From positions 14,308 through 78,307 of the forward strand of contig MHGA01000006.1 of NCBI GenBank assembly GCA_001804415.1: a stretch of DNA of 64,000 bases, read 5' to 3'. The stretch is from Candidatus Aquivivens invisus (GTDB lineage Bacteria > Omnitrophota > Gorgyraeia > Aquiviventales > Aquiviventaceae). Shown piece after piece: positions 3,249-58,336 of the stretch (within the stretch, counting starts at the first letter, position 1; the number at the start of each line of letters is the position of its first letter). Under the pieces are notes generated by a model. The model had not been told where the DNA came from and did no database searches. It saw only the letters and a program-made list of their open reading frames with translations. A program made the translations under genes and the position numbers.

Positions 3249-4814
3249 TCATCTAACAATCTGTGTAATCGAGGTCTGCTCTTTAGCTATATGCACTTCG
3301 AGAGGTTGCGCGGGTGCCAGGGTGCGCGCGACGAGCGGGCGCGTGGAGAGATCAATCAATCGCACCAGCGGCTTGGGCCAGCATCCCACGATCAACAGTG
3401 CTGCGATCAACACCACATACGGGAGGCGGGCAAACGGGGTGGCGGCGTCTTTCGCGTGGGCGAGGCTCTCGTTGGCGCCTCCGAAGAACACCCCGCGCAC
3501 CATCCGCAGCATGTACACCGAGGTGATCACGATCCCCAGCACCGCCAGCACCGCCTGCAGACGGTACCGATCCCACGACCCGAAGATCACCATCATCTCC
3601 GCCACGAAGTTCGCGAATCCCGGCAGGCCGCTGGACGCCATGGCGGCCATCACCCCGCAGGTGGCGATGAACGGCAGGCGCTTCGCCAGCCCTCCCAGCT
3701 CCGGCAGGGAGCGCGTGTGCGTCTCGTCGTAGATGTGGCCGACCAGCGCGAAGGCGAGCGCCGTCATCACCCCGTGCCCGAACATCAGCAACACCGCACC
3801 GTTGAGCGAGAGCGGAGTGAGCGCACAGATCCCCAGCAGGACGTAGCCCATGTGGCTGGAGGAGGAGTACCCGATGATGAACTTCAAATCTTTCTGGGCC
3901 ATGGCGACCAGCCCGCCGTAGATGATGTTCATCGTGCACAGCCCGGCGATCCACGGCAGCCACGCCTGCGCGCCGAGGGGCAGGAGGTTCAGCGGCAGGC
4001 GGATGATCGCGTAGGAACCCAGCTTCATCAGGACCGCCGCATGCAGCATGCTCACCGCCGACGGAGCCGCGGCGTGTCCGATAGGCGACCAGCTATGCAG
4101 CGGCCACAGCGGCGCGATGACCCCGAAGCCCACCGCCAGCAGGGGAAAGATCCACCACTGCAACCGGGCGTCCAGCGGATGGGCGCGCAGATGCTCCTCC
4201 AGCGCGACCACGTCAAAGGTCTGCGCCCCGCAACTGACGTACAGCCACAAGAGTCCGATCAACGCCAGCACCGCGCCGGAGGTGAGGTAAATCGTCAGCT
4301 TCATCGCGGCGTATTCTTTCGAGAACACCACCCGGCCGCCTTCCTTGGTATCGCTGCCCCAGACGCCGATGAGCGGATACATCGGGATCACCGCCATCTC
4401 GTAGAAGAAGTAGAAGAAGAACAGATCCAGCGACAGGAACACCCCGAACACGCCGGTGATGAGCAGCAGGTAGAAGAGATAGTATTCCTTCACGCGCTCC
4501 TTGATGGCGTACGAGATCAGCACGCCGGCGAAGGCGCAGATCGCATGCAGCAGCACCAGCACGGCGCTGATCCCATCCACCCCGAGGTGAAACCCGACGC
4601 CCAGCGCGGCGATCCACGGCACCTCCACGTGGAACTGATATCCACCGGAGGAGCGGTCGAAATTCGTCACCACCCACAGCGCGGTCAGCAGCGGGATGAA
4701 GGTCGCCCCCACCGCCACCCGCCGGATGAGGCGGATCTCTTGCCGGGGGAGCCACAGCAACAGCATCACGCCCATCGCCGGCGCCAGCAGGATCATCAGC
4801 AGCGGACTCATCAT
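3249..4814 (-). CDS. nuoM: NADH-quinone oxidoreductase subunit M (start ATGATGA overlapping nuoL stop)
   Basis: NuoM-type sequence; ATG at 4814 overlaps TGA of nuoL (4811-4813); the longer ORF to 4931 is rejected as extension. Confidence 0.85.
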   Translation of the reverse strand: MMSPLLMILLAPAMGVMLLLWLPRQEIRLIRRVAVGATFIPLLTALWVVTNFDRSSGGYQFHVEVPWIAALGVGFHLGVDGISAVLVLLHAICAFAGVLISYAIKERVKEYYLFYLLLITGVFGVFLSLDLFFFYFFYEMAVIPMYPLIGVWGSDTKEGGRVVFSKEYAAMKLTIYLTSGAVLALIGLLWLYVSCGAQTFDVVALEEHLRAHPLDARLQWWIFPLLAVGFGVIAPLWPLHSWSPIGHAAAPSAVSMLHAAVLMKLGSYAIIRLPLNLLPLGAQAWLPWIAGLCTMNIIYGGLVAMAQKDLKFIIGYSSSSHMGYVLLGICALTPLSLNGAVLLMFGHGVMTALAFALVGHIYDETHTRSLPELGGLAKRLPFIATCGVMAAMASSGLPGFANFVAEMMVIFGSWDRYRLQAVLAVLGIVITSVYMLRMVRGVFFGGANESLAHAKDAATPFARLPYVVLIAALLIVGCWPKPLVRLIDLSTRPLVARTLAPAQPLEVHIAKEQTSITQIVR

Positions 4815-6760
4815 GGATGGTTCGCCAGATACAGCAACGCGACGACTCCCACAAAAAACACCAACACGTACTGCTGCACCTTCCCGGTTTGGCACAAGCG
4901 CAGCAACCGGCCGGCCGTCTTGGTCGTCCACGCCGTGCCGTTGACCGCCAAGCCGATAATGACGAACCGCTCAAACAGCGCGCAGGCGGAGGCGATGAGG
5001 CGCTGCTGAATCCGATCCACATACCAGGCATACGCGTCGTCGATACGGTAGTGCCGAAGGAGCAGCCGGTAGACCGGGCCGAACGTCTGCGCAATCTTCG
5101 ACGGTGAGATTGAGCGCGTGCCGTAGATCAACCATGCCAGCCCGACGCCGATGGCCACCACCACCAGGGAGGTCCCGGCGATGCCCCAATGCAGCTCGGC
5201 CGCCTGCTCACCCAGAAACGCCGGGATGCCGAGGTAACCGCCGACGATGGACAGCGCCGCCAGCACCGCCAGCGGAACGAGCATGATCGTCGGAGACTCG
5301 TGCGGATGCAATCCGTGGGCGGGCGACCGAGCCGGCACCATCCCTGCTGGCGAGGAAGTGCCGTCAGCCGCAGGGCTGACGGCCTTGCCCACAAACGCCA
5401 CACACCACACCCGCGCCGTGTAGAACGCGGTGAAACCCGCGGTCACCGTCCCCAACCAGTAGAGCGAGGCGTTGTGCTCATGGGCGAGCGCGAGGATGGC
5501 ATCCTTGCTGAAAAAACCGCTCAAGCCCGGCGCGCCGCACAACGCCAGCGCGCCGACGAAAAACGAGAGCGACGTCCATCGCATCGACGTCCACAGTCCC
5601 CCCAGCTCCCAGATGTTCTGCCGGTGGGTGCCGTGGATGACGCTGCCGGCGCTGAGGAACAGCAGCGCCTTGAAAAACGCGTGCGTGGTGAGGTGATACA
5701 TGCCCGCGCCCGCCCCGCCCAACCCCACCGCCATCACCATGTAGCCAAGCTGGCTCAGCGTCGAGTACGCGAGGATGCGCTTCAGGTCCGATTCCACGAT
5801 GGCCAGGCACGCCGAGAGAAACGCCGTCGCGCCACCGACCCACGCGATCACGGTCAAGACGGTGCGCAACTCCTCGAACAGCCAGAAGGTCCGGCAGAGC
5901 ATGTAGACCCCGGCCGCCACCATCGTGGCCGCATGGATGAGCGCGGAGACCGACGTGGGCCCTTCCATCGCATCCGGCAGCCACACGTGCAGCGGAAACT
6001 GCGCCGACTTGCCCAGCACCCCGCAGAACAGCAACAGCCCGATCCCCGTCAGCGCCGTAGGGGACAGCCACCCCAGCTCCATCAGGTGCGGAAGCCGCTG
6101 GTACAGCGTCTGGAACTGCACGCTGCGCTCAGCGGCGATCGGGCTTGAGACGGCCCACAGCCAGACAATCCCCAGCAGGAAGCCGAAGTCCGCGACGCGG
6201 TTGACCATGAACGCTTTCTTGCCGGCCTCAGCGGCGGCGGGTTTCTCGTACCAGTGGCCGATGAGCGCGTAGGAGCAGAACCCCACTAGCTCCCAGCCGA
6301 TGAACAGCTCGATCCAGTTGGTCGCCAGGACGATCGCCAGCATGGAGAAGGCGAACAGCGACAGCAGTCCGAAGTACCGGCTGTAGCCGGCGTCATCCGC
6401 CATGTAGCCGATGGAATAGAGGAAGATGGCACTGCCCACGCCGGTGACCACCAGCGACATGAGCAGGGAGAGCCGGTCGATGAGCACCCCGAACGGAATG
6501 GAGAAGTCCGGCAGCCCGATCCATGTCACCGATAGCTCCAGCGGCAGGGTCAGGCCTCCGCTGCGCGCTTGGACGAACAGCGACAGCGCGCAGGCAAACG
6601 AGAGCAGCAGCCCCCCATTGGCGAGCAGCGCGCTCAACCGCCGTCGGGAGATCCCGAAGAGGAGAATCCCCAGCGCCGAGACGAGCGGGCTGAGCAACAG
6701 GGTCCACGCGCAGAAAACGGCTGAAGGCTGAAGGCTGAAGGCTGAAGGCTGGGCTACCAT
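4811..6760 (-). CDS. nuoL: NADH-quinone oxidoreductase subunit L; 12-aa N-terminal extension encoded by a (GGCTGAA)n heptamer tract
   Basis: 649-aa antiporter-like subunit with long C-terminal helix region; ATG 6760 overlaps nuoK stop. Confidence 0.85.
   Translation of the reverse strand: MVAQPSAFSLQPSAVFCAWTLLLSPLVSALGILLFGISRRRLSALLANGGLLLSFACALSLFVQARSGGLTLPLELSVTWIGLPDFSIPFGVLIDRLSLLMSLVVTGVGSAIFLYSIGYMADDAGYSRYFGLLSLFAFSMLAIVLATNWIELFIGWELVGFCSYALIGHWYEKPAAAEAGKKAFMVNRVADFGFLLGIVWLWAVSSPIAAERSVQFQTLYQRLPHLMELGWLSPTALTGIGLLLFCGVLGKSAQFPLHVWLPDAMEGPTSVSALIHAATMVAAGVYMLCRTFWLFEELRTVLTVIAWVGGATAFLSACLAIVESDLKRILAYSTLSQLGYMVMAVGLGGAGAGMYHLTTHAFFKALLFLSAGSVIHGTHRQNIWELGGLWTSMRWTSLSFFVGALALCGAPGLSGFFSKDAILALAHEHNASLYWLGTVTAGFTAFYTARVWCVAFVGKAVSPAADGTSSPAGMVPARSPAHGLHPHESPTIMLVPLAVLAALSIVGGYLGIPAFLGEQAAELHWGIAGTSLVVVAIGVGLAWLIYGTRSISPSKIAQTFGPVYRLLLRHYRIDDAYAWYVDRIQQRLIASACALFERFVIIGLAVNGTAWTTKTAGRLLRLCQTGKVQQYVLVFFVGVVALLYLANHP
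6718..6752. repeat. Tandem heptanucleotide repeat (GGCTGAA)x4.7 inside the first 15 codons of nuoL
   Basis: ggctgaa repeated 4 times perfectly + ggctggg; read directly. Confidence 0.95.
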
Positions 6761-8783: not shown

Positions 8784-10403
8784 ATGCCCGAGACGCTCCA
8801 CACCACCGCCTTGACCCCTGAGCCCATCGTCAGGCTCGAGAACTATTTCCGCGAGCCGTACAACCTCGCCGTCGCGGCGGCGCGCACCTGTTACTCCTCC
8901 CAGGTGATCTCGACGGACGATGTGGACCGCGATGACCAAACCCGCGCCCAGCGGGACCGCATCGCGGAGAGCATCTACAAGGCCGGCCATCACACGACGA
9001 TCCAGCACCCCACCTTCCAGTTCGTCCTTGAGCGCGTGTCACGCCACTGCATTTGGTCCTTCCTCCACGCGCATCCTTTTTATAACAGCGAGCAGGTTTC
9101 ACAACGTTTTGTCGAGGTGAAGCCGGAGCATTTTACGATCCCGCCGCTGGAAGACGCCGCCCGGTCGATCTACCTCAAGGCGGTGCGCGCGCAGATGGAC
9201 GCCTACCACCGCCTGTGCGAGCTGGTGGAGCCGACGGTCAACCTGGAGTATCGGCGGATCTTTCCCCATCGCGAGCTGTCGGACAAACGCTGGAAGGGCG
9301 CCATCAAGAAACGCTGCCAGGAGGTGGCGAGGTACGTCTTGCCGGTGGCGACCCACGCGCACCTCTACCACACGATCAGCGGGATTACCCTGCACCGCTA
9401 CTGGCGGCTATGCCGGCAGTTTGACGTCCCGCTGGAGCAGCGCTTCGTCGTGCAGCGAATGGTCGAGGAGGTGTGCCGGGTCGATCCGAAGTTCATGGCC
9501 CTGGCGGAGGATCCGATGCCGATGGAGGAGACGCTGGAGTATCGCGTGTTCCAGGCTCTCCACGCCGGATCCCCGGCCCGCCTCGATGGCCAGAGTCCGG
9601 GGCGGGCAACCAACGGGACGGGCCGAGGCTTTGTCGATGAATTCGACCGGGAGCTCGGTGCGCACACCTCCAGGCTGGTGGATTACAAGGCGCGCGCGCA
9701 AGAGACCCTGGCGCAGGCGGTGCGATCGGTGCTCGGCGTACCCAGAGGACAGCTGTCAGATCTGCAGGCGATCGATCTGGTGCTCAATCCGGCGCGCAAC
9801 CCCTACCTGTCCGACACGCTGACCCTCACGACGGTCAGCAAGCTCTCCCGCGCCCTGGTGCATCCCCACTTTACATTTAAGAAGAAACTGTCGCACACCG
9901 CTGATTCGCAGGACCAGCGCCACCGCATGGTGCCCGCCTCGCGGCCGATCCTGCTGACCCACTTCGTCGCGGATCGACCGGACTACATCACCCCCGTCCT
10001 GATTCGCGCCACCCCGGAAGCTCTCGCCTGCTACGGCGAGGTGATGACCACGGTCTGGCGCGCCATCACCCGGTTGCTCGAGCTAGGGGTGAGCCACGAA
10101 TTCGCGCTGTACCTGCTCCCCAATGCGTTTCCGATCCGGTTTGAAGAGTCGGGCGATTTGCTGCACTTCCATCACAAGTGGGTGCAGCGGCTCTGCTACA
10201 CGGCGCAGGAGGAAATCTGGAACAGCTGTCGCGAAGAGGTGTTGCAGGTGACCGAGCGTTTTCCGGAGATCGGCCGGTACCTCCAAGCGCCGTGCTGGCC
10301 GAGGTCGCAGGCAGGGATTCGTCCGTACTGTCCCGAAGGCGACCGCTTCTGCGGCGTCGCCGTGTGGAAGCTGCCGGTCGAAGAGTACCAACGGCTCATT
10401 TGA
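8784..10403 (+). CDS. Tandem-domain ThyX-like (flavin-dependent thymidylate synthase family) protein, 539 aa
   Basis: Two ThyX-like halves; the first has GHHTTIQH...SRHCIWSFLHAHPF..SQRF (RHR replaced by HAH), the second retains RHRMVPAS. Confidence 0.55.
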   Translation: MPETLHTTALTPEPIVRLENYFREPYNLAVAAARTCYSSQVISTDDVDRDDQTRAQRDRIAESIYKAGHHTTIQHPTFQFVLERVSRHCIWSFLHAHPFYNSEQVSQRFVEVKPEHFTIPPLEDAARSIYLKAVRAQMDAYHRLCELVEPTVNLEYRRIFPHRELSDKRWKGAIKKRCQEVARYVLPVATHAHLYHTISGITLHRYWRLCRQFDVPLEQRFVVQRMVEEVCRVDPKFMALAEDPMPMEETLEYRVFQALHAGSPARLDGQSPGRATNGTGRGFVDEFDRELGAHTSRLVDYKARAQETLAQAVRSVLGVPRGQLSDLQAIDLVLNPARNPYLSDTLTLTTVSKLSRALVHPHFTFKKKLSHTADSQDQRHRMVPASRPILLTHFVADRPDYITPVLIRATPEALACYGEVMTTVWRAITRLLELGVSHEFALYLLPNAFPIRFEESGDLLHFHHKWVQRLCYTAQEEIWNSCREEVLQVTERFPEIGRYLQAPCWPRSQAGIRPYCPEGDRFCGVAVWKLPVEEYQRLI

Positions 10404-10411
10404 AGCAAGCG

Positions 10412-10460
10412 ACAAGGGACAAGGGACAAGGGACAAGGGACAAGGGACAAGGGACAAGGA
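10412..10460. repeat. Tandem heptanucleotide repeat (ACAAGGG)x7 between thyX-like stop and cld-like start
   Basis: Seven consecutive 7-nt units, last one ACAAGGA. Confidence 0.95.
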
Positions 10461-10462
10461 AC

Positions 10463-11209
10463 ATGACCATGCCGATACCGGTCGAGGAAGCCAAGAGCCA
10501 CGCCCCCGCGGTTCAACGGGAGGCCGTGGCTCGGCAGATCGTGGGGTTCTCGTTCTACCGCGTGGATCCGGAGTGGAGGCGGCTGCCGGCTTCGACGAAG
10601 CGCAGGCAGGGCGGGGAGCTGGCCGGTGTCATCACGCGCTACGCCAAGCAGCTGATGGTGCTGACCTATTCGCTCGTCGGGTTGAAGCCCGACGTCGACT
10701 TCTTGATCTGGCGCGTGGGCAACCGGCTTGAGCAGCTGCAGGCGATGTCGGCGGCGGTTCGGCAGACGGCGATGGCCGGGTACCTGTCGATGCCGCACGC
10801 GTATCTGTCGATGACGAAACGGTCCACCTACGTGGATAAGCTCGATCCCGATCACGCGGATGCGCGGCGGTTCATCACGCCGTTTCACAGCAAGTACCTG
10901 TTCGTCTATCCCTTCGTGAAAACCCACGAATGGTATCAGCTCCCGTTCGAACAGCGCCAGGCGATGATGGACGAGCATATCGTCCTGGGGAACACGTACC
11001 CCTCGGTGCGGATCCACACGACCTACGGCTTCGGGCTGGATGATCACGAGTTCGTCCTCGCCTTTGAAACCGACCACCCTCAGGACTTCCTCGATCTCGT
11101 GATGGCGATGCGCGAGAGCAAGGCTCGCCCCTACACCCTGCGGGATACGCCGATCTTCACCTGTGTGGCCAAACCGTTTGATGAGATTCTCAATGAAATC
11201 GGCTGCTGA
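10463..11209 (+). CDS. Chlorite dismutase family protein (Cld-like/HemQ-like), cytoplasmic (no signal peptide)
   Basis: C-terminal half aligns with Nitrospira Cld (YxFVKTxEWYxLxxxxRxxMMxEH, GLDDxxF..FET); ATG right after the heptamer tract. Confidence 0.75.
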   Translation: MTMPIPVEEAKSHAPAVQREAVARQIVGFSFYRVDPEWRRLPASTKRRQGGELAGVITRYAKQLMVLTYSLVGLKPDVDFLIWRVGNRLEQLQAMSAAVRQTAMAGYLSMPHAYLSMTKRSTYVDKLDPDHADARRFITPFHSKYLFVYPFVKTHEWYQLPFEQRQAMMDEHIVLGNTYPSVRIHTTYGFGLDDHEFVLAFETDHPQDFLDLVMAMRESKARPYTLRDTPIFTCVAKPFDEILNEIGC

Positions 11210-13929: not shown

Positions 13930-13969
13930 CCCCCACACCAATTGTCGCAGACAACAATTGGTGTGGGGG
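13930..13969. promoter_or_regulatory. Perfect 16-bp-arm palindrome (CCCCCACACCAATTGT-N7-ACAATTGGTGTGGGGG) immediately after the stop at 13929
   Basis: Read directly; no T-run on either side. Confidence 0.6.
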
Positions 13970-18574: not shown

Positions 18575-19702
18575 ATGTCGAGAGCAGAGGCGCTGAAGCT
18601 CTTTGAGGCACGCGATCTCATCGGCCTCGGGCAATTGGCGAACGAGGTCAAGCAAGCCACATGGGGCGATCGCGCCCACTTTGTGATCAACCGCCAGATC
18701 AACCCTACGAACGTCTGCGTCCTGTCCTGCCGGTTCTGCGACTTCGCGACCAAGCGGGGACGCCCTAACGCCTACGAGATGACGATCCAGGACGTCTTAG
18801 ATCGCCTCAGCCCGGAGCTGCGGGAAGTCCACATCGTGCAGGGGCTGCATCCGGACTGGACGTGGGATTTCTACCTGGAGATGCTCCGCGCGATCAAGAC
18901 GAGCTTCCCCCGGATGCAGATCAAAGCCTGGACGGCGGTTGAGATTGACTATTTCTCCAAGAAGTTTCGCCTCTCGGTCGAAGAGGTCCTGGTGCAGATG
19001 AAGGAGGCGGGGCTCTCCGCCTTGCCCGGCGGGGGCGCGGAGGTGTTTTCCGAACGGGTGCGCAAGGCGCTGTTTCCCTTTAAAATCGGCGCGCCGAGGT
19101 GGCTGGAGATTCACCGGATCGCGCATCAGCTGGGCATCCCGACCAACGCGACCTTGCTGTACGGCCACATCGAGACGCGCGAAGAACGCGTGGATCACCT
19201 CCTGAAGCTTCGCGAACTCCAGGATGACACCGGCGGCTTCATGAGCTTCATCCCGTTGGCGTATCAAGTCGGCAAGACGCGCGTGGTCGAGCGCCAGGCG
19301 TCGGCGATCGAGGACCTCAAGACGATGGCGATCTCCAGGCTGCTCCTGGACAACATCCCCCACATCAAAGCCTACTGGGTGACGATGGGTGAAGAGACGG
19401 CGTCGATCGCCCTGAACTTCGGGGCCGATGATCTCGACGGGACGATCGGGGAGGAGCGGATCATGCATGCCGCGGATGCCGCAAGCCCGATTCGGCAGAC
19501 CCGCGAGCGGCTGGTGGAACTCATCCGAGCCTCCGGATGCGTGCCGGTGGAACGCGATGCCCTCTATCACGAGGTCGCGGTGTGCGACCCTTCGACTCGC
19601 GCCACGGCCTCTGGCCGTGGGCTCGCTCAGGATTCCGCCCCACGGGCGCAGGAAGAGGTGCCACGGGCTCTGCCCGTGGGGCTCCACAATGGCCACCGGT
19701 AA
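18575..19702 (+). CDS. Radical SAM menaquinone biosynthesis enzyme, MqnC/MqnE family (paralog 1; alternative start 18524); about 45-aa C-terminal extension encoded by hairpin repeats
   Basis: NPTNVCVLSCRFCDFA cluster motif, CofG/CofH-like fold. Confidence 0.75.
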   Translation: MSRAEALKLFEARDLIGLGQLANEVKQATWGDRAHFVINRQINPTNVCVLSCRFCDFATKRGRPNAYEMTIQDVLDRLSPELREVHIVQGLHPDWTWDFYLEMLRAIKTSFPRMQIKAWTAVEIDYFSKKFRLSVEEVLVQMKEAGLSALPGGGAEVFSERVRKALFPFKIGAPRWLEIHRIAHQLGIPTNATLLYGHIETREERVDHLLKLRELQDDTGGFMSFIPLAYQVGKTRVVERQASAIEDLKTMAISRLLLDNIPHIKAYWVTMGEETASIALNFGADDLDGTIGEERIMHAADAASPIRQTRERLVELIRASGCVPVERDALYHEVAVCDPSTRATASGRGLAQDSAPRAQEEVPRALPVGLHNGHR

Positions 19703-19736
19703 AGTCAGAAGTCAAAAGTCAGAAGTCGGAAGTACA
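19702..19736. repeat. Tandem heptanucleotide repeat (AAGTCAG)x5 (imperfect) between mqnC/E paralog 1 and mqnA
   Basis: aagtcag aagtcaa aagtcag aagtcgg aagtaca, followed by CT-rich run. Confidence 0.9.
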
Positions 19737-19766
19737 CTTCCCTCTTCCCCCTTCGCTCTTCCCCCT

Positions 19767-20522
19767 TTGACGGTGGCCCGCATTCCGTATCTCAACTGCG
19801 CGCCGTTTTTTGCCGGCCTTCCGCTCAAGCCAGGATGGGAGGTGGTCGACGTTGCGCCCAGGCGTTTAGGCCAGATGGCTGAGGAGGGCAAGTTCTTGGC
19901 GGGCGTGATGTCGCTGGCGGATTACCTGCGGTTGCAGGATCGCTTCGAGCGGATCGGGCCGCTGGGGGTGGCGGTGCGGGGACGGGTGGGCAGCGCGCTG
20001 CTGTTTTCGCGCAAACCCCTTCGGCAGCTGGACGGCGCCTGCGTCGCGGTGACGGACGAAACGTCGACGACCGCCCTGTTGCTTCGCGTGATCCTGGAAC
20101 AGCGTTACCACCTGACGGTTCGACTCGCGCCGCACGCCCACCCGACCCAGCAGGATGCTGACGCGGTGCTGCTGATCGGCGATGAGGCCTTGCGGTTTGG
20201 CAGCGTCAACCGGCTCTATCCGTTTGAGATTGATGTCGCCTTTGAATGGTGGTTGTGGCAGCATCTGCCCTGCGTCTTCGCCGTGTGGGCGATCCGCGCG
20301 GACGCCGGCGCGAGCACCAAGCGGGAGGTGAGCGAAGCCCTCCAGCGCACCCTGGCGGTCAACCTGCGTCGCCTCGATGAGCTCGTCATCCAACCGGCTG
20401 CCTCCCTGCACGTTCCGGCCGAGGACCTCACGATGTATCTGAGCCGGTTCATCTATCGTCTCAGCGCCGAGGAGGAGCGCGCCATCCAGCGCTTCGCCCA
20501 ACTGTCCCAATCCATGGCATGA
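19767..20522 (+). CDS. mqnA: Chorismate dehydratase MqnA (start uncertain: TTG 19767/GTG 19773, or ATG 19689 if heptamer tract is translated)
   Basis: RIPYLNCAPF MqnA signature, PF02621-type fold. Confidence 0.75.
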   Translation: MTVARIPYLNCAPFFAGLPLKPGWEVVDVAPRRLGQMAEEGKFLAGVMSLADYLRLQDRFERIGPLGVAVRGRVGSALLFSRKPLRQLDGACVAVTDETSTTALLLRVILEQRYHLTVRLAPHAHPTQQDADAVLLIGDEALRFGSVNRLYPFEIDVAFEWWLWQHLPCVFAVWAIRADAGASTKREVSEALQRTLAVNLRRLDELVIQPAASLHVPAEDLTMYLSRFIYRLSAEEERAIQRFAQLSQSMA

Positions 20523-22077: not shown

Positions 22078-23048
22078 TGGAGTGGTCCTCCATCATCTCG
22101 CGCTCGCTGACGGACGAGGCGATTGCCCGCGAGGAAGCCCTCGACATCCTGCGGCTGCCTGACGAGCAGATCGTGGAGGTCTTACGCGCCGCCTTCGAGG
22201 TGCGCCAAGCCACCTACGGCAAGCGGGTGAAAATCTGCCTGCTGCAAAACGCCCGCAGCGGGCTGTGCCCCGAGGATTGCCACTACTGTTCCCAGTCCGC
22301 CGTATCCACCGCGCCGATTGCGAGGTACCTGCTGCTTCCCCTTGACCAGCTGATGGAGGGGGCTCGTCGCGCGCGCGAGGCCGGGGCAAGACGCTACTGC
22401 ATGGTGACCAGCGGACGGGGCCCCAGCGAAGAAGACATCGCGCACTTCTGTGAAGCCGCCCGACTGATCAAATCCCAGTATCCCCTGGAGATCTGCGTGT
22501 CGCTGGGCATCCTGTCGGGGACGCAGGCCCACCAACTCAAAGAGGCCGGTGTGGGGTGGGTGAACCACAACCTGAACACCAGCGCTCGGCATCATCCCGC
22601 CATCTGTACGACCCACACGTATCAGGATCGCCTCCAAACCGTCCGGAATGTCCAGCAGGCCGGGCTGATGACGTGCAGCGGAGGCATCGTGGGCATGGGC
22701 GAAACGGACGAGGATCTTCTCGAACTCGCCCTGGCCCTGCGGGAGTTGCGCGTCAACTCGCTGCCGGTCAATTTCCTCAATCCGATCCCCGGCACGCCGC
22801 TGGAGGCGTGCCGCGCGCTGACCCCCATGCGGTGTCTGAAAATCCTCTGCCTGTTCCGGTTTCTGAATCCGAAAAGCGATCTGCGCGCCGCGGGAGGCCG
22901 CGAGGTCAATCTGCGCTCCCTCCAGCCGCTGGCGCTGTATCCCGCCAATTCCATCTTCGTGGACGGTTACCTGACCACGCCGGGCCAGGCCGCGCAGGCC
23001 GCCCGGCAGATGGTCAGCGACATGGGGTTTGAGCTGGAGGAGTCATGA
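22074..23048 (+). CDS. bioB: Biotin synthase-like radical SAM protein
   Basis: CPEDCHYCSQS plus BioB-type 2Fe-2S cysteines (RYCMVTSGRG, EICVSLGIL, MTCSGGIVG). Confidence 0.6.
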   Translation: MMEWSSIISRSLTDEAIAREEALDILRLPDEQIVEVLRAAFEVRQATYGKRVKICLLQNARSGLCPEDCHYCSQSAVSTAPIARYLLLPLDQLMEGARRAREAGARRYCMVTSGRGPSEEDIAHFCEAARLIKSQYPLEICVSLGILSGTQAHQLKEAGVGWVNHNLNTSARHHPAICTTHTYQDRLQTVRNVQQAGLMTCSGGIVGMGETDEDLLELALALRELRVNSLPVNFLNPIPGTPLEACRALTPMRCLKILCLFRFLNPKSDLRAAGGREVNLRSLQPLALYPANSIFVDGYLTTPGQAAQAARQMVSDMGFELEES

Positions 23049-23181
23049 TCCCCCCACCTCCTGAGGGCTGCCAATGGCAGCCCATGCAACGCGAGACAGC
23101 GCGCGAGGGGATGGCGAAATTTGCAGAGACAGAGCATGGTTGCATTGCCACGCCATTGGTGTGGCATCAGGAGGTGGGGGG

Positions 23182-23721
23182 ATGAAGCGAACCTGGATCC
23201 TGACGGCGATCGGCAGGGATCGGCCCGGCATCGTGGCGCATGTGACCAAGGTCTTGTACGCGCTCGGCGGCAATCTCGAAGACTCCGCGATGACGCGGCT
23301 GTGCGGCGAATTTGCGATCATGCTGGTCTTCTCCGCGCCGGGTCTGGTGACGGCGAAGCGGCTGGAGAGGGCCTTTCGACCGGTCGCCTCCCGACTAGGG
23401 CTGGCGACTCATCTCAAGCCGCTGGCGGCAACCGCGCAGCGTTCGACGACGCGGCCCCGCGTCTCTCTCATCTCCGTCTACGGGGCTGACCACCCGGGCA
23501 TTGTGTATCGGGTTGCCGAGTTGCTCGCCCGCTCCAAGATCAACATCACCGACCTATCGACCCATCGAACCACGGGCAACCGTCCGCTGTACCATCTCCT
23601 CCTTGAAGTCGAGCTGCCAAACCGACTCGACCCCGCACGGCTCGAACGCCGCCTGAAGACGCTGGGCAGACGACTTGGCGTCACGGTGAGCCTCCGAGCG
23701 GCTGAGACGACAGTCCTCTAG
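23182..23721 (+). CDS. Tandem ACT-domain protein (GcvR/UPF0237-like)
   Basis: Two ACT repeats (GRDRPGIVAHVT..., GADHPGIVYRVAELL...). Confidence 0.6.
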   Translation: MKRTWILTAIGRDRPGIVAHVTKVLYALGGNLEDSAMTRLCGEFAIMLVFSAPGLVTAKRLERAFRPVASRLGLATHLKPLAATAQRSTTRPRVSLISVYGADHPGIVYRVAELLARSKINITDLSTHRTTGNRPLYHLLLEVELPNRLDPARLERRLKTLGRRLGVTVSLRAAETTVL

Positions 23722-29667: not shown

Positions 29668-30008
29668 GCCAGAAGTCTACCAAAGGCATCGATGTCAGAG
29701 CAAGTCGTTAGGAGAGTGGATGGTGAACTAAATGCGCCCAAGAATGCACGTTAACATGATGGGGCGCATTTAAATGGAACCCCCCTGAATGTTAAGATGC
29801 ATTGGTGGTTCCATTTAGGACGGGGTGAGGGAGCGCAGCAATTCGCAGAGGATCTGGTTCGTTCGCTTGGCGCGCGCCTGCAGGAGCGGCACCTTCTGCT
29901 CGAGATGCTTGCGCACCTCCTTGCGCAAATCCCATGTCCGATCCAACACCGCGCACAGCTTGCCGATGTTGAGCTCCGCGATGGAGGCAAGCCTCTCTGC
30001 TCAAGAGT

Positions 30009-33154: not shown

Positions 33155-33232
33155 CCGTTGTTTCCTCGGATGGCGGCCCGACCACCGACAACTCCTCTAA
33201 GAAGGAGCATGCGCTGCCTTCTTAGACCCTTC
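33134..33232 (-). terminator. Copy 1 of a repeated two-hairpin module ending (minus orientation) in GC hairpin plus U-run; downstream of ArsB/NhaD-family gene
   Basis: Hairpins ctctaagaagg/ccttcttagag and ccgccatccg/cggatggcgg, conserved linker GGTGGTCGGGCC. Confidence 0.6.
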
Positions 33233-34842: not shown

Positions 34843-34925
34843 CGCAAAATAAAAACCGCCATCTAGCAAACGCTAGGTGGCGGCCCGACCACTAGAAACT
34901 CCTCCGGGCGATATACCCGGACCCT
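34843..34925 (-). terminator. Copy 2 of the repeated two-hairpin/terminator module (downstream of mscS)
   Basis: GGAAGCGCAAAATAAAAACCGCCATC identical to copy 3; first hairpin replaced by ccggg/cccgg stem. Confidence 0.6.
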
Positions 34926-44023: not shown

Positions 44024-44120
44024 AGCGCAAAATAAAAACCGCCATCCAGCAATGCTAGATGGCGGCCCGACCACCGAACCTCCTCTAAGAAGGGGCACAA
44101 GACATCCTTCTTAGACCCTT
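44024..44120 (-). terminator. Copy 3 of the repeated two-hairpin/terminator module (downstream of APC permease)
   Basis: Minus orientation: GGGUCUAAGAAGG..CCUUCUUAGAGG-AGGUUCGGUGGUCGGGCC-GCCAUCUAGCAUUGCUGGAUGGCGG-UUUUUAUUUU. Confidence 0.65.
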
Positions 44121-44167: not shown

Positions 44168-45487
44168 TCACCCCACTCGCCGGCGGGAGAGCGCGTAAAA
44201 GGGTAGCGCTAGGACGAGGAGGCCGAAGCCGAAGAGCGCCTCACGCGGCTGCTTCACGCAGACGTCGAGGATGAAGCCGCACATCACCAAGGAGAACAGC
44301 AGCGGGGTCAGCGGATACCCCCAGGCGCGGTAGGGCCTTGGGCGCGTGGGATGCGCGCGCCGCAGGACGATCACCCCCAGCACCGCCATCACGAAGAACA
44401 CGGAGATGACGACCGTGGAGTAGGTCATGATCTGGTCAAACGTCTTGGTGAACACTAGCACCACGGCGATCGCCGCGTTGGTCCACAAGGCCAGGGCCGG
44501 CGTGTGATACGTCGGGTGCACGGCGCTCAACCATTCGAAGAGGGGATGATCCTTGCCCATCGCATACAGGATGCGCGCGCCGGTGAGGATGTAGCCGTTG
44601 AGCGCGCCGAACGCCGAGCAGGCTACCATGACGGCGATGAACGTCGCCCCCGGATTTCCCCACAGGCGTTCCAGCACATGCGAGGCGACCAGCGTGGTGG
44701 TCGGCAAGTCGGTCATGTCCACGCAGACCAAGTAGCTGATGTTCACCAGCAGATACAAGACAGTCACCAGCGCCAGGCCTCCGAGAATCGAACGCGGCAG
44801 CGTGCGGGACGGATCGCGGATTTCTTCGGCGACGTAGGCGGCCTCCGTCCATCCGCCGAAGGTCCACAGCACAAACACAAACGCCACGCCGGACGACTGG
44901 ATGACGGGCAGGGTCAGGGCGGGGAGGCGCCAGTCAACGGCCACGCCGCGCCCGCCGGCCAACGCAATCACGCCGGTTGCGATCACGCTGACCAACGCCC
45001 CGATCTTCAGCACGGTAAAAATGTTTTGGACCGCTGTGCCCCGCCGCACCCCCAAGACGTTGATGGCGGTCAGCAGCACAATCGAGCCGGCGGCGAGGCC
45101 TCGCAGCGCAACCGGCGACATCGGGAACAACCGCCCGAGGTACTCCGCGAACACAAAACCCAGGATGGCGATGGTGCCGGTTCGCTCGATGAACAGTTTC
45201 GTCCAGCCGAAGAGAAAGCCCCAGAACCGGCCGTAGCCTTGCGTGATGTAGACGTAGTCGCCCCCGCTCTGTGGAAACAGCGTGGACAATTCGGCGTAGC
45301 ACAACGCACCGCACAATGACACGAGTCCCCCGACGACCCAGAGCGCGAGGATCAGCGAGGGACTTGGGAGGTGCGTGGCGATTGAGCTGGCCGTGCGGAA
45401 GATCCCGACGCCGACGATGCAGCCCACCACCAGCATCGTCGCATCGAAGAGCCCCAGCGCCCTAATGAGGGAAGACGGCTTGCTCAT
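44168..45487 (-). CDS. APC-family amino acid permease (start ATG 45487; the GTG 45505 alternative lies inside the repeat)
   Basis: 12-TM APC family profile. Confidence 0.75.
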   Translation of the reverse strand: MSKPSSLIRALGLFDATMLVVGCIVGVGIFRTASSIATHLPSPSLILALWVVGGLVSLCGALCYAELSTLFPQSGGDYVYITQGYGRFWGFLFGWTKLFIERTGTIAILGFVFAEYLGRLFPMSPVALRGLAAGSIVLLTAINVLGVRRGTAVQNIFTVLKIGALVSVIATGVIALAGGRGVAVDWRLPALTLPVIQSSGVAFVFVLWTFGGWTEAAYVAEEIRDPSRTLPRSILGGLALVTVLYLLVNISYLVCVDMTDLPTTTLVASHVLERLWGNPGATFIAVMVACSAFGALNGYILTGARILYAMGKDHPLFEWLSAVHPTYHTPALALWTNAAIAVVLVFTKTFDQIMTYSTVVISVFFVMAVLGVIVLRRAHPTRPRPYRAWGYPLTPLLFSLVMCGFILDVCVKQPREALFGFGLLVLALPFYALSRRRVG

Positions 45488-45492
45488 AGCGG

Positions 45493-45559
45493 CGACAAGC
45501 GACACGCGACAAGCGACAAGAAGAGAATCATGTCACTTGTCCCTTGTCACTTGTCACTC
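45493..45559. repeat. Inverted arrays of heptamers: (CGACAAG)x4, 10-nt spacer, (CTTGTCA/TGTCACT)x4; long hairpin between M15 peptidase stop and permease start
   Basis: Read directly; right arm supplies the last codons and stop of the peptidase. Confidence 0.9.
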
Positions 45560-46419
45560 TGTTCAAAGTGCCAATGCCACGGCTCGAACGCCGTGTTGTG
45601 CGGATTATCGCGGGGGTACGACAGCACGAATCCAAACTCGTGCGCATGGTGCGCAAGCCACTGGTATTCCGGGAGGGCTTCGAACGCCTCAGGGTTGTCC
45701 TCGCCATTGATGCCCTCCTCGTTGATGAAATCGACGGCTTGGCGGGGAGGGTAGCCGTGCTCGCTGTGTCCCGGCAAGGCGACGAAACGGTTGGTCTCGC
45801 GGATGGAATGGTCGTGCTTCGGCAGATAGAAGAGGAACAAATACAGCTGATAAGCCGGCGAGCGATAGCCGGACTCAACCAGGAGGCGCTTGCCGAGGTC
45901 GTGCGCCATGGCCTCCATCATGGCCTCGTAGGCCAGCATGGCTTCCCGAGGCAGAACCTGGGCGTCCAGCAAGATCGGTTGGCCTTCCTTGAGGTATTCC
46001 TGGGGACCCACCGGCACCACGTCGGGCGGTTCGCTCAACTCCCCGAAATAGTGGGAGGTTGCGCCGAGATCGGTTCCGCGCAAGGCGCGGACGGCATCGA
46101 GGAACGCGCGCTGCTCCTCGGTGAGGGGTTGGTACAGCTCCTCCCAGGTGAGCAGGTTGGCCGTGCCGGATTGCTTGTGGGAACTGATGAGCGGATCGAG
46201 GCGTTCAAGGACCGCCTGGAGCTGCGCGGTCTCTTCAGGATCCAGACGATCGACGTGGAGGGCGAGAGCCGACGCGGCAACACACAGCAGCCCGACCGTT
46301 GCCAGAACGCCGGCGAGGAACGGTCGGGCTGCGCGCGCGTGCACGGCGAGAATTACCGTCTCTTCGATGACAATTCGTCGACCACGCCGTTGAACCAGCG
46401 CCCCGCCTGATCCTTGCAT
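45547..46419 (-). CDS. D-alanyl-D-alanine carboxypeptidase, VanY/peptidase M15B family
   Basis: ESGYRSP and LPGHSEHGYPPRQAVD motifs; signal peptide. Confidence 0.75.
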   Translation of the reverse strand: MQGSGGALVQRRGRRIVIEETVILAVHARAARPFLAGVLATVGLLCVAASALALHVDRLDPEETAQLQAVLERLDPLISSHKQSGTANLLTWEELYQPLTEEQRAFLDAVRALRGTDLGATSHYFGELSEPPDVVPVGPQEYLKEGQPILLDAQVLPREAMLAYEAMMEAMAHDLGKRLLVESGYRSPAYQLYLFLFYLPKHDHSIRETNRFVALPGHSEHGYPPRQAVDFINEEGINGEDNPEAFEALPEYQWLAHHAHEFGFVLSYPRDNPHNTAFEPWHWHFEQSDK

Positions 46420-47027
46420 CCCAGGCCGAAGGCCAGCGCCAACCCAAAGCTGACGGCGGCGAGGACGATGAGGAACGCTTCCCCCACCAACTGGATTTGC
46501 AGTTGTCGCAGGGCGGCGGAGATGGCGAAGATCACCACGATGGCTTGGACCGCCTGGCCCAGCAGCCTGGAGGCATCCACCCCCGCATTGCTCGCCGCGG
46601 TACGCACGGTGCTGGCGAGAAACGCTCCCGTGACAATGCCAGCCACGAGGATGAAGATGGCCGCCACCACGTTCGGGAGGAAGGCGACGATGTGCTCAAG
46701 CAGTTGGGCTGCGACGGTGAGCTGCAGGGCGTTGAGGGTGGCAATGAGGACGACCAGCGTCACAAGCCAGTAGATGATCACCCCGATGACTTCCGAGAGC
46801 TTGCGTTTGATACCACCTTTGCTTAACACCTCGGTCAATTGCACCTTATCCGCGAGCTTGTCCAGCTTCGCCGTCTTGAGCAACTTGACGATCACGCCTT
46901 CCACCCCCTTGGCGACCGCCCATCCGACCAGCAGGATGAACAGGGCCCCCAGCACGTTGGGGAGAAACCCCATGAGCTGGCTGAAAAAGACTTGGACCGG
47001 CTGAATGAGCACCAACTGCCAATCCAT
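46353..47027 (-). CDS. Membrane protein with conserved TM-helix repeats (MscS-associated TM_helix type)
   Basis: Three similar TM repeats (FLPNVxxAxFILxxG). Confidence 0.55.
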   Translation of the reverse strand: MDWQLVLIQPVQVFFSQLMGFLPNVLGALFILLVGWAVAKGVEGVIVKLLKTAKLDKLADKVQLTEVLSKGGIKRKLSEVIGVIIYWLVTLVVLIATLNALQLTVAAQLLEHIVAFLPNVVAAIFILVAGIVTGAFLASTVRTAASNAGVDASRLLGQAVQAIVVIFAISAALRQLQIQLVGEAFLIVLAAVSFGLALAFGLGCKDQAGRWFNGVVDELSSKRR

Positions 47028-47083: not shown

Positions 47084-47431
47084 TTATGGGACAGCGCTGG
47101 ATTCTTCCCAGAAGACGAACTCGGGCTGGATGACCGGCTCGTAGTCAGGCGGGGCCGGAAAGGGGAACGTGAAGAACTCGTAGAACCCTGCGGCGGTCCG
47201 GACGAATCCGTGGCCCATCCCGCGCAGCAGCCCCCACGTGAGCCCGGCCGCCATCCCTTCGGTGTTGGAGGTCTCGGCGATGCGTTTGGGGATTTCGACC
47301 CACCCCGTGATGATGTTCGCGAGGCCTCGACCCAACTTGGTCGTCGGGCTGGCAGCGTGACTGAGGGAGGGAACGCTCAGGAAGGCAATCGTCAGGAAGG
47401 TCAGGGTCCGTGCAGCTTGCGACCGTGACAT
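47084..47431 (-). CDS. Small secreted protein, paralog family member
   Basis: Signal peptide; [18 protein letters not shown]...TFPFP. Confidence 0.6.
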
Positions 47432-47487
47432 GCGCGTACTGTAGCATGAGCAGCCTCCGAACGCAAGCGCTTGTTATAATAGGGAGG

Positions 47488-57348: not shown

Positions 57349-58221
57349 ATGAAACGGGTGTTGGTCGTCTACAAGAAAAGCGCCTATCAGCTCCACGTGG
57401 TGGAGCGGAAGGATCCGTGGCTGAGGCGGCTGCTGCGAGCGAGTCACCCCGATGCCCTCGACTGGCTCGCGGCCCACCGCGTGCAACAACGCACCCTCGA
57501 TGCCGTGGTGCGCAGCCTGCGCAGCCTCGGCGTGCGGGAGACCCTGGTCTATCGCGAGCGCCTTCGGCCCGCCACCGGCTACGATCTGGTGCTGAGTGTG
57601 GGAGGCGACGGGACGGTGCTGCAGGCCTCCCACTTCATGAAGGACACGCCGCTCCTGGGCGTGAACTCAGATCCGACGCGCAGTGAGGCCGTGTTCTGCG
57701 CGGCCACCGCCTCGGACGTCCATCGAGTCGTGCGGGACGCGTTGGAGGGCCGGCTGCCCGCGCTCTTGCTCTACCGCTTGGCCGTTGCGCTCAACGGCCG
57801 GCGGCTGGGTCCGTTAGCGCTCAATGACGTGCTGATCGCCCATGAGGATCCCGCCACGATGAGCCGCTATCGCCTGCGGCTCGGCGCCCGGTGTGAAGAT
57901 CACAAGAGTTCAGGATTGTGGGTGGCCACCGCCGCGGGCTCCAGCAGCGCGATGGCCGCGGCGGGAGGAAGGCGCCTGCCCTGGGGGGCCAAGCGGTTTC
58001 AGTACCGGCCTCGCGAGCTGTACCAGGGGCGCTTGACCCGTTGTCGCCTGACAGGCGGGCAGCTTTCGCCCCCACGGTGTCTTGAGTTGGTCTGGTTGAT
58101 GCGGGAGGGTGCGGTCTTTCTCGACGGGCCGCATCTCAAACACCGACTGCGATTCGGGGATCGGGTGACGGTGTCGCTCTCGCCGCAACATCCATTCCGC
58201 GTGCTGGGCTTACGCCGATGA
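57349..58221 (+). CDS. nadK: NAD kinase
   Basis: GGDGT motif, NAD kinase fold. Confidence 0.8.
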   Translation: MKRVLVVYKKSAYQLHVVERKDPWLRRLLRASHPDALDWLAAHRVQQRTLDAVVRSLRSLGVRETLVYRERLRPATGYDLVLSVGGDGTVLQASHFMKDTPLLGVNSDPTRSEAVFCAATASDVHRVVRDALEGRLPALLLYRLAVALNGRRLGPLALNDVLIAHEDPATMSRYRLRLGARCEDHKSSGLWVATAAGSSSAMAAAGGRRLPWGAKRFQYRPRELYQGRLTRCRLTGGQLSPPRCLELVWLMREGAVFLDGPHLKHRLRFGDRVTVSLSPQHPFRVLGLRR

Positions 58222-58228
58222 GACAGAG

Positions 58229-58336
58229 CGACAAGCGACAAGCGACAGGTAACAAGTCGAACAGGCCTACTCGAGGGCAGCTTCCTCTGTTGTGGTGTTG
58301 CCTTGTCGCTTGTACCTTGTCGCTTGTCCCTGTCCT
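58229..58336. repeat. Inverted arrays of heptamers (CGACAAG)x3-5 ... 37-nt spacer ... (CTTGTCG/CTTGTMC)x5 between nadK and memo-ammecr1
   Basis: Read directly; ATG 58218 (overlapping nadK TGA) is in frame through the array with the downstream gene. Confidence 0.9.

Follow-up and report, generated by a model that had tools for sequence, protein, structure and literature searches.

The junction between a gene for a VanY/M15 D-Ala-D-Ala carboxypeptidase and a gene for an APC-family amino acid permease in Candidatus Aquivivens invisus (Omnitrophota) is filled by a long hairpin whose two arms are tandem arrays of a heptanucleotide unit. The hairpin lies at positions 45493-45558 of the 64,000-nucleotide stretch of contig MHGA01000006.1 that we analyzed (the window), and both genes are read from the minus strand. 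We found that the element is a new member of the heptanucleotide class of long simple-sequence repeats and that it falls outside the definitions of the STRR sequences (short, repetitive, and repeated in tandem) in the strict sense, of repetitive extragenic palindromic (REP) sequences, of MITEs (miniature transposable elements with inverted repeats), and of intrinsic terminators. On balance, we consider it probable that the element is an inverted pair of heptamer arrays (4 + 4 units) which arose at the level of DNA and has been tolerated at a gene junction with translational coupling, where it probably keeps translation of the permease dependent on that of VanY. The original prediction had described a stem-loop between two co-directional cistrons, made of a heptamer with further copies in the window, and this description stands.

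Read on the plus strand, the left arm consists of the units CGACAAG (45493-45499), CGACACG (45500-45506), CGACAAG (45507-45513), and CGACAAG (45514-45520), and the right arm consists of TGTCACT (45531-45537), TGTCCCT (45538-45544), TGTCACT (45545-45551), and TGTCACT (45552-45558); the sequence thus contains the four direct units, 10-nt loop, and four inverted units that had been proposed. Tandem Repeats Finder calls both arms as period 7, with 4.1 and 4.0 copies and 90% matches. On the mRNA, which corresponds to the minus strand, the 5' arm (45531-45558) reads AGUGACA, AGUGACA, AGGGACA, AGUGACA and the 3' arm (45493-45520) reads CUUGUCG, CUUGUCG, CGUGUCG, CUUGUCG. The 10 nt between the arrays (45521-45530; AAGAGAATCA as read on the plus strand) extend the stem by 2 bp in the fold and leave a 6-nt apical loop, and the whole predicted mRNA stem-loop spans 45491-45559 (minus strand) with about 27 pairs, G-U pairs included. 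RNA folding, which had been suggested as a check, bears the structure out: in a 111-nt context the minus-strand RNA folds at -49.9 kcal/mol (z = -5.64), and 0 of 200 shuffled sequences fold equally well. The plus-strand RNA is weaker (-39.7 kcal/mol) because several arm mismatches turn into G-U pairs only on the mRNA strand. The stem therefore deserves its earlier description as near-perfect when it is read as minus-strand RNA and does not deserve it as DNA or as plus-strand RNA; owing to the same arm mismatches, the hairpin is missing from the 25 longest inverted pairs returned by a repeat search of the window. The two-unit pattern GACAAGNGACAAG, with at most one mismatch, has 17 matches in the window versus 0.23 expected, and this excess, together with the z-score of the minus-strand fold, excludes a chance origin.

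The hairpin is not the only such array in the window. A tandem-period scan of the 64 kb found 5-6 arrays of period 7, none of periods 4-6, 8, or 10-12, and two of period 9 at a looser setting, so that period 7 alone is enriched among tandem repeats. Each of the five array loci occupies a short gap between co-directional genes and begins at the stop codon of the upstream gene or at most 3 nt from it. The GACAAG family occupies three of them (10406, 45493, and 58222), in line with the earlier claim that this heptamer is found elsewhere in the window. On the plus strand, about eight GGACAAG units at 10406-10463 form an unpaired, unstructured array that fills the gap from a TGA stop codon (10401-10403) to an ATG at 10463; its neighbors are a gene with a Thy1 domain (539 aa) and a chlorite-dismutase-family gene. 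An inverted pair at 58222-58335, also on the plus strand and directly after the stop codon TGA 58219-58221, is composed of a GACAAGC array, a 45-nt loop, and a CTTGTCN array and folds at -56.8 kcal/mol (z = -4.7). A second plus-strand pair (19702-19767), with 4.6 copies of AAGTCAG followed by 4.4 copies of CTTCCCC, starts at the stop codon TAA 19700-19702 and forms a periodic, bulged hairpin (-23.6 kcal/mol, z = -2.5). The array at 6719-6751 on the minus strand (4.7 copies of CCUUCAG in mRNA sense) is unpaired, lies between the stop codon TAG 6754-6756 and the next minus-strand gene, and has less structure than its shuffled versions. Inverted pairs in the window give long hairpins, and single arrays are unstructured. 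With about four head-to-tail 7-nt units per arm, an excess of period 7 over 64 kb, and a noncoding, dispersed unit family, the hairpin belongs to the heptanucleotide long simple-sequence repeats, or STRR-like arrays, a class of period-7 repeats that the original prediction had missed. As two arrays of one unit on opposite strands, in convergent orientation and closer together than the limit of about 150 nt used for such pairs, it is also an inverted pair of the Xanthomonas type.

Slippage is active at the sister array at 10406, as judged from a count of 8 units for the window against 7 for two Joint Genome Institute (JGI) assemblies (L210/L211, about 1449-1500) of otherwise identical strains whose aligned flanks are identical. 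A one-unit difference between strains is what one would expect if these arrays were phase-variable (contingency) repeats, in which the number of units tunes or switches the permease in the manner of the 7-bp repeats upstream of Haemophilus hmw1A. Repeats of 7 bp in a 5' untranslated region that act with RNase III are reportedly a documented mechanism, and this counts for phase variation (PMC12721329). The hairpin, however, has 4 + 4 units in all seven assemblies compared (the window and the near-identical contigs L001-L006, from several samples); a change in unit number was seen at 10406 and not at 45493-45558. The sole difference among the seven is an A-to-G substitution in L005 that keeps the pairing as G-U, and the six contigs, whose permease is identical, are too alike for a covariation analysis. 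Moreover, the arms contain interrupted units, which suppress slippage, and the genes that flank the arrays are ordinary metabolic and transport genes. We do not class the hairpin as a contingency simple-sequence repeat and regard a phase-variable role as decidedly unlikely.

The position of the hairpin relative to the two genes is central to its interpretation. The VanY gene (45547-46344, minus strand) encodes 265 aa from a GTG start according to gene calls on sister contigs; the maximal open reading frame (ORF) has 290 aa, and the called gene begins at a later GTG. Its UGA stop codon (45547-45549, minus strand) lies 10 nt inside the 5' arm; in the fold, the base of the stem is 8 nt before this stop codon and 4 nt before the permease AUG. 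The final three codons of VanY (S-D-K) and the stop (TGA at 45549-45547) all belong to this arm, as had been read from the right arm. The permease gene (44168-45487, minus strand; 439 aa according to gene calls on near-identical contigs) starts with an AUG at 45485-45487 (minus strand), 3-4 nt beyond the stem. A gap of 40 nt had been given earlier on the basis of the ORF-maximal GTG at 45505, and this value needs correction: the gene calls of six near-identical contigs and the conserved N terminus of relatives (M-S-K and similar) point to ATG 45487 as the start, so that 59 nt (45488-45546), nearly all of it stem-loop, separate VanY from the permease. Upstream of the permease AUG (gucgccgcuAUG), a Shine-Dalgarno-like sequence was not found.

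This geometry also bears on the suggestion that the hairpin could be a terminator. A terminator or attenuator of the U-tract-less ("I-shaped") intrinsic type, ending most transcripts after VanY, would be in keeping with a long stable stem right after a stop codon and with the similar pairs that lie between convergent genes in other phyla (among the matches listed). The stem is followed by GCCGCUAUG, which has no U-run, and the terminator scan makes no call here, while the same scan calls a canonical hairpin with a U-tract at 44068-44036. Transcripts must read through the hairpin because the permease AUG lies 3-4 nt past the stem and a promoter would not fit into the 59-nt gap. The hairpin is not at the end of a transcription unit, and in 12 of the 37 lineages compared below the genes are overlapping or almost adjacent, an arrangement which implies that VanY and the permease are probably co-transcribed across the hairpin. 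We therefore rejected a Rho-independent terminator, and we consider a U-less variant very unlikely. As a matter of annotation, such hairpins should not be labeled terminators.

The VanY-permease junction can be followed in related lineages, as the order MscS-like gene, VanY, permease is found in three long contigs and about 45 metagenome loci. These provided 36 further distinct VanY-permease junctions, or 37 with the window. The junction alternates between two states. In 12 of the 37 the distance is only -4 to +16 nt (tight junctions), and five of these have stop and start codons that overlap by 4 nt (-4); in the other 25, the window counted, there is a spacer of at least 29 nt. A hairpin with a fold z of -2 or lower occupies 18 of the 25 spacers, and tandem arrays of 7-8 nt are present in both arms in 14 of the 25, as judged by eye. 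The stem-loop spans a median of 90% of the stop codon plus spacer; the median distance from its 5' base to the stop codon downstream is 3 nt, and from its 3' base to the start codon downstream 5 nt. The units vary by lineage and include GACAAGN, TGTCACA, GGTGAGA, GAGACAT, CAGTGAN, TCCATAG, GCGGAAT, and CGTCGTT, among others. In the window, L131, and L140, the first repeat units code for the end of VanY, S-D-K-stop. On a permease tree, the presence of a hairpin and the type of unit are scattered: the sisters L128 (CAAGTGA) and L146 (CCAGTGA) have units one base apart, and their next relative, L137, has an ATGA overlap. The arms also decay unequally, with 2 units opposite 4 in L163. The direct and inverted copies of a short unit resemble an operator or iteron layout, which raises the question of whether the DNA itself, as an iteron-like binding array or as a cruciform, is recognized by a regulator or nucleoid protein. 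The window, however, contains at least three unrelated heptamer units in 64 kb, relatives have a dozen at this one junction, and the arrays sit between co-directional genes rather than at promoters; we rejected the iteron reading and find DNA-level binding extremely unlikely.

A selected RNA element would be expected to leave a different mark. The hairpin could be an RNase III or RNase E processing site, or a barrier to 3' exonucleases, that sets different levels of VanY and permease, as REP sequences and bacterial interspersed mosaic elements (BIMEs) do in E. coli malEFG. Retention of a hairpin in 18 of 25 spacer junctions despite complete sequence turnover, the pairing kept by the L005 variant, the far higher occupancy of this junction than of the neighboring one, and the arm mismatches in the window that are G-U pairs on the mRNA strand all argue for such an element. 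A stem kept for its role in mRNA should tolerate G-U pairs only on the functional strand, so the sense strand should fold better than the antisense. Across the 25 spacer junctions, no such advantage was found: the sense strand folds better in 11 and worse in 14 (Wilcoxon p = 0.29), and there are 84 G-U pairs on the sense strand versus 100 on the antisense. The closest hairpin of the same family, in L128, folds better as antisense (+14 kcal/mol). The G-U asymmetry, which we had expected to reveal RNA-level selection, holds for the window locus and fails across the 25 junctions; with the strand test negative, it is not a general feature. Furthermore, the arms decay asymmetrically (L163), and one third of the lineages lack any spacer. 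Among Rfam 15 families there was no match at the gathering threshold, and at E ≤ 1 only a chance mir-598 match nearby; a blastn search against plasmids gave no relevant match. We regard a selected RNA as rather unlikely. The negative strand test and the independent decay of the arms favor, as far as comparison of sequences can tell, birth and decay at the DNA level over a conserved RNA.

The pairs have a pronounced polarity. Of 59 inverted heptamer pairs from all collected loci, 45 open with the purine-rich arm and 10 with the pyrimidine-rich arm (binomial p = 2e-6); the window hairpin is purine-rich first, as are 45 of the 55 scorable pairs, and 3 of the 10 pyrimidine-first pairs come from a single cyanobacterial metagenome-assembled genome (MAG). 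Many of these loci were retrieved with the GACAAG pattern, and polarity itself was not a selection criterion. A stop triplet within the unit is found in the first-met arm, from either side, in 35 of 58 pairs versus 8 of 58 for the second arm, and the 29 pairs built from non-GACAAG units show the asymmetry in the same direction (16-17 of 29 versus 7 of 29). We used pair polarity in place of counts of ORF stops within 10-15 nt of an array, since on pattern-derived loci such counts are partly circular: GACAAGT has TGA in every frame. These observations suggest that gene ends would tolerate a palindrome only if its first arm stops translation in every frame.

Arrays of this architecture are not confined to Omnitrophota. 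A contig scan with GACAAGNGACAAGNGACAAG, which shows taxonomic breadth and gives no frequencies, returned, among the matches listed (L007-L126), (GACAAGN)n, a unique loop of 30-70 nt, and (NCTTGTC)n in Pyrinomonadaceae, other Acidobacteriota, Gemmatimonadaceae, Bacteroidales, Chloroflexi, Actinomycetota, and a MAG labeled Clostridia. Examples are found at 7268-7444 of L009, 1161-1288 of L088, 2397-2534 of L103, 371-518 of L086, and 7476-7590 of L038. Outside Omnitrophota, the listed GACAAGN pairs often lie between convergent ORFs. An 8-kb stretch of a Thermomicrobiales MAG (L016) has three more inverted heptamer pairs, at 1277-1384, 3273-3382, and 4735-4854, with the unit AGCCGGT twice and GAGGCGG once, which points to a very high array density in some Chloroflexota.

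Such breadth is one of the observations that could be explained by a mobile palindromic element, similar to a MITE or to REP sequences and their hairpin-forming doublets (REPINs), that was inserted at the junction and owes its spread to a transposase encoded at another site. The GACAAGT architecture in Pyrinomonadaceae, Gemmatimonadaceae, Bacteroidales, and others (among the matches listed), the occurrence of one heptamer family at several loci per genome (in the window, and twice for GATTTTN in L128), and the insertion-like presence and absence at orthologous junctions are all consistent with this. The copies, however, have only their arrays in common, and their loops are unrelated in length and sequence. 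Inspection revealed no target-site duplication, no terminal tag of the GTAG/CGTC type, and no fixed length; the GACAAG unit also exists as an unpaired array (10406), and slippage unit by unit was observed. No transposase turned up in the window, where no search aimed at transposases was made. Mobility of this kind thus seems quite unlikely to us. As for the named families, we rejected REP and REPIN, since there is no GTAG or CGTC at either end and copies of the family share only the heptamer arrays, and MITE, since the borders show no target-site duplication on inspection, the loops of different copies are unrelated, and there is no conserved interior.

The reading that we prefer, an inverted heptamer pair born at the DNA level and tolerated at a coupled junction, can be put as a sequence of steps. 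The arrays would have originated by replication slippage in 7-nt steps combined with inverted duplication or template switching between the arms. The 4-nt ATGA stop/start overlap is the alternative, and probably the ancestral, state of the junction; the element would have supplied a new VanY stop codon, the C-terminal S-D-K, and essentially the whole 59-nt spacer. On the polycistronic mRNA, a stem of about 27 bp may sequester the permease start, which has no Shine-Dalgarno sequence, and a ribosome that terminates at the VanY UGA inside the 5' arm would melt most of the stem and expose the AUG. Translation of the permease would then stay coupled to VanY, as in relatives with overlapping genes. 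We base this coupling on three observations: the permease lacks a Shine-Dalgarno-like sequence, a promoter would not fit into the gap, and the alternative state is one of gene overlap. The stem may additionally slow termination or act as a barrier to 3' exonucleases. In our view the element is tolerated, as it keeps the coupling and carries stop codons, rather than being a finely selected RNA.

Several points weigh against this reading. The window hairpin itself folds at about -45 kcal/mol as sense and -34 kcal/mol as antisense RNA, its arm mismatches being G-U pairs on the sense strand, and this would fit selection at the RNA level here. Its copy number is identical in the seven assemblies, and their single substitution keeps the pairing. 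The neighboring junction behaves differently: the spacer between the MscS-like gene and VanY exceeds 30 nt in 3 of 26 lineages, versus 25 of 37 with a spacer at the VanY-permease junction (Fisher p = 9e-6), and a purely neutral tolerance does not predict this excess in occupancy. A polarity as strong as 45 versus 10 calls for a selective or mechanistic cause. We know of no mechanism that makes both arms in register. Lastly, coupling and occlusion of the start are inferred from the anatomy of the junction and from what is generally known about structured initiation regions. An alternative which we hold only tentatively, and judge to be fairly unlikely, is that heptamer-array hairpins are a cross-phylum module of gene junctions, made by a dedicated mechanism and kept for coupling or for insulation of cistrons. 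Such a module would have a fixed grammar, in which a purine-rich, stop-bearing arm faces the incoming gene, each arm has about four units, and the start codon that follows lies right next to the complementary arm. Candidates for the mechanism would be a polymerase or a template-switching process with a register of 7 nt, or else a factor with recognition of particular heptamers such as GACAAGN. If this were true, the recurrent occupation of one junction in an Omnitrophota clade with full sequence turnover would be a signature of that process.

The surroundings of the junction provide further context. The closest homologues of the permease (60-72% identity) are labeled Candidatus Omnitrophica, and identical copies are found in Rifle and other groundwater assemblies. 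Upstream of VanY lie two co-oriented minus-strand genes, an MscS-TM-like gene (46353-47027) 8 nt from VanY and, first in the series, a gene for 115 aa (47084-47431). An extended -10-like motif, TGCTACAGT, is located at about 47437-47446, 6 nt before the ATG of the 115-aa gene, whose mRNA is possibly leaderless; the motif recurs as TTGCTATAGT / TTGTTATAGT shortly upstream of cstA in L128, L133, L147, L151, L155, and L158. In relatives, the permease-cstA junction likewise alternates between overlap and long hairpins, some of them built from heptamers. In L128 (11324-11590), L151, and L163, the permease-cstA spacer starts with TGATCCCACCACCTG and ends with CAGGTGGTGGGATG, with G replacing the second C-C pair in L151; these matching ends indicate a conserved helix that pairs the region of the permease stop codon directly with the cstA start codon. 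Long nested palindromes that have a REP-like look and no heptamer periodicity are found at operon junctions of some relatives, with an outer stem of about 18 bp and an inner 12-bp stem in L135 (865-1020) and repeated GAAAAATAGAAATGTCCC modules in L139 (3012-3223). Just downstream of the permease there is an Rfam nhaA-I riboswitch (RF03057) match on the minus strand (44057-44118), with a sigma-70-like promoter match (44158-44131) ahead of it; the terminator-like site at 44068-44036, 1.4 kb from the heptamer hairpin, overlaps the 3' end of this match. Two more nhaA-I matches on the minus strand, at 34875-34924 and 33168-33229, likewise exceed the gathering score. The window contains other strong inverted repeats as well, with perfect 16-nt arms and an 8-nt loop at 13930-13969, perfect 17-nt arms 102 nt apart at 23048-23064 and 23167-23183, and 18-nt arms with an 8-nt loop at 29729-29772.

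Reports of heptamer repeats between bacterial genes go back to 1990. In the literature, we found no earlier description of such heptamer arrays for Omnitrophota, and the present element adds this phylum to the class. In most genomes of a 2007 survey (Mrazek), heptamers reportedly outnumbered every other kind of long simple repeat (summarized in PMC4679880). The VanY-permease junction amounts to a natural experiment, in which one operon junction in dozens of lineages has either an overlapping stop and start or a lineage-specific heptamer hairpin. The comparison yields rules that can be tested (anchoring at the stop codon, the purine-rich, stop-bearing arm first in 45 versus 10 pairs, and no bias toward the RNA strand), and we offer the hypothesis that the hairpins are coupling-preserving spacers. 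The junction comparison and the polarity rule are the parts of possible use to specialists.

The element can be compared with several known systems. In cyanobacteria, each genome reportedly has a small number of STRR heptamer families that are scattered over numerous intergenic sites, and in RNase P RNA, STRR arrays are said to make both arms of helix P12 longer, which means that heptamer arrays can build stems. Those units are CCCCAGT, TTGGTCA, and CAACAGT in heterocystous cyanobacteria, whereas the unit here is GACAAGN and the host belongs to the Omnitrophota; we therefore rejected STRR in the strict sense and call the element STRR-like only. The REP and BIME palindromes are said, when transcribed, to affect mRNA stability and, near a stop codon, translation of the upstream gene. 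Our element resembles those of enterobacteria and pseudomonads as a transcribed palindrome at an intercistronic or 3' position and differs in having tandem 7-mer arms, no conserved element sequence, no GTAG/CGTC tag, and no known link to a REP-associated tyrosine transposase (RAYT). That tag is reportedly the defining feature of REP sequences (PMC3733652). The layout of a start codon held in a helix is shared with another system, and in our case the unmasking is deduced from anatomy only. In E. coli infC-rpmI-rplT, the downstream start is held in a helix that is opened by a ribosome on the upstream cistron, as has been shown experimentally.

Two further systems consist of intergenic heptamer arrays. 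In marine Beggiatoaceae, TAACTGA arrays of 2-6 units abut start codons without canonical ribosome-binding sites, the heptamer occurs across phyla, and a translational role has been proposed; nearly all of these arrays are unpaired, with one indirect repeat versus 169 direct sets (MacGregor 2015, PMC4679880). The Omnitrophota element is likewise an intergenic heptamer array next to a start without a Shine-Dalgarno sequence, with a heptamer of cross-phylum occurrence, but its unit is different, it is anchored at the upstream stop codon, and it is paired. In Xanthomonas, intergenic tandem 7-mers of GGGAATC with a preference for four units form 70-75 "convergent" inverted pairs per genome that are able to fold into stem-loops; their function is unknown, the purine/G-rich array lies downstream of the ORF on the coding strand, and pair type and gene neighborhoods are kept between species despite extensive change in length and sequence (Rehm et al. 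2015, PMC4692102). The pair described here shares with these the intergenic 7-mers, about four units per array, the opposite-strand arrays in a convergent arrangement, and neighborhoods that are kept amid sequence change. It differs in its GACAAGN unit, which does not form G-quadruplexes, and in its Omnitrophota host, and it fills the space from stop to start within an operon while encoding the last codons of the upstream gene.

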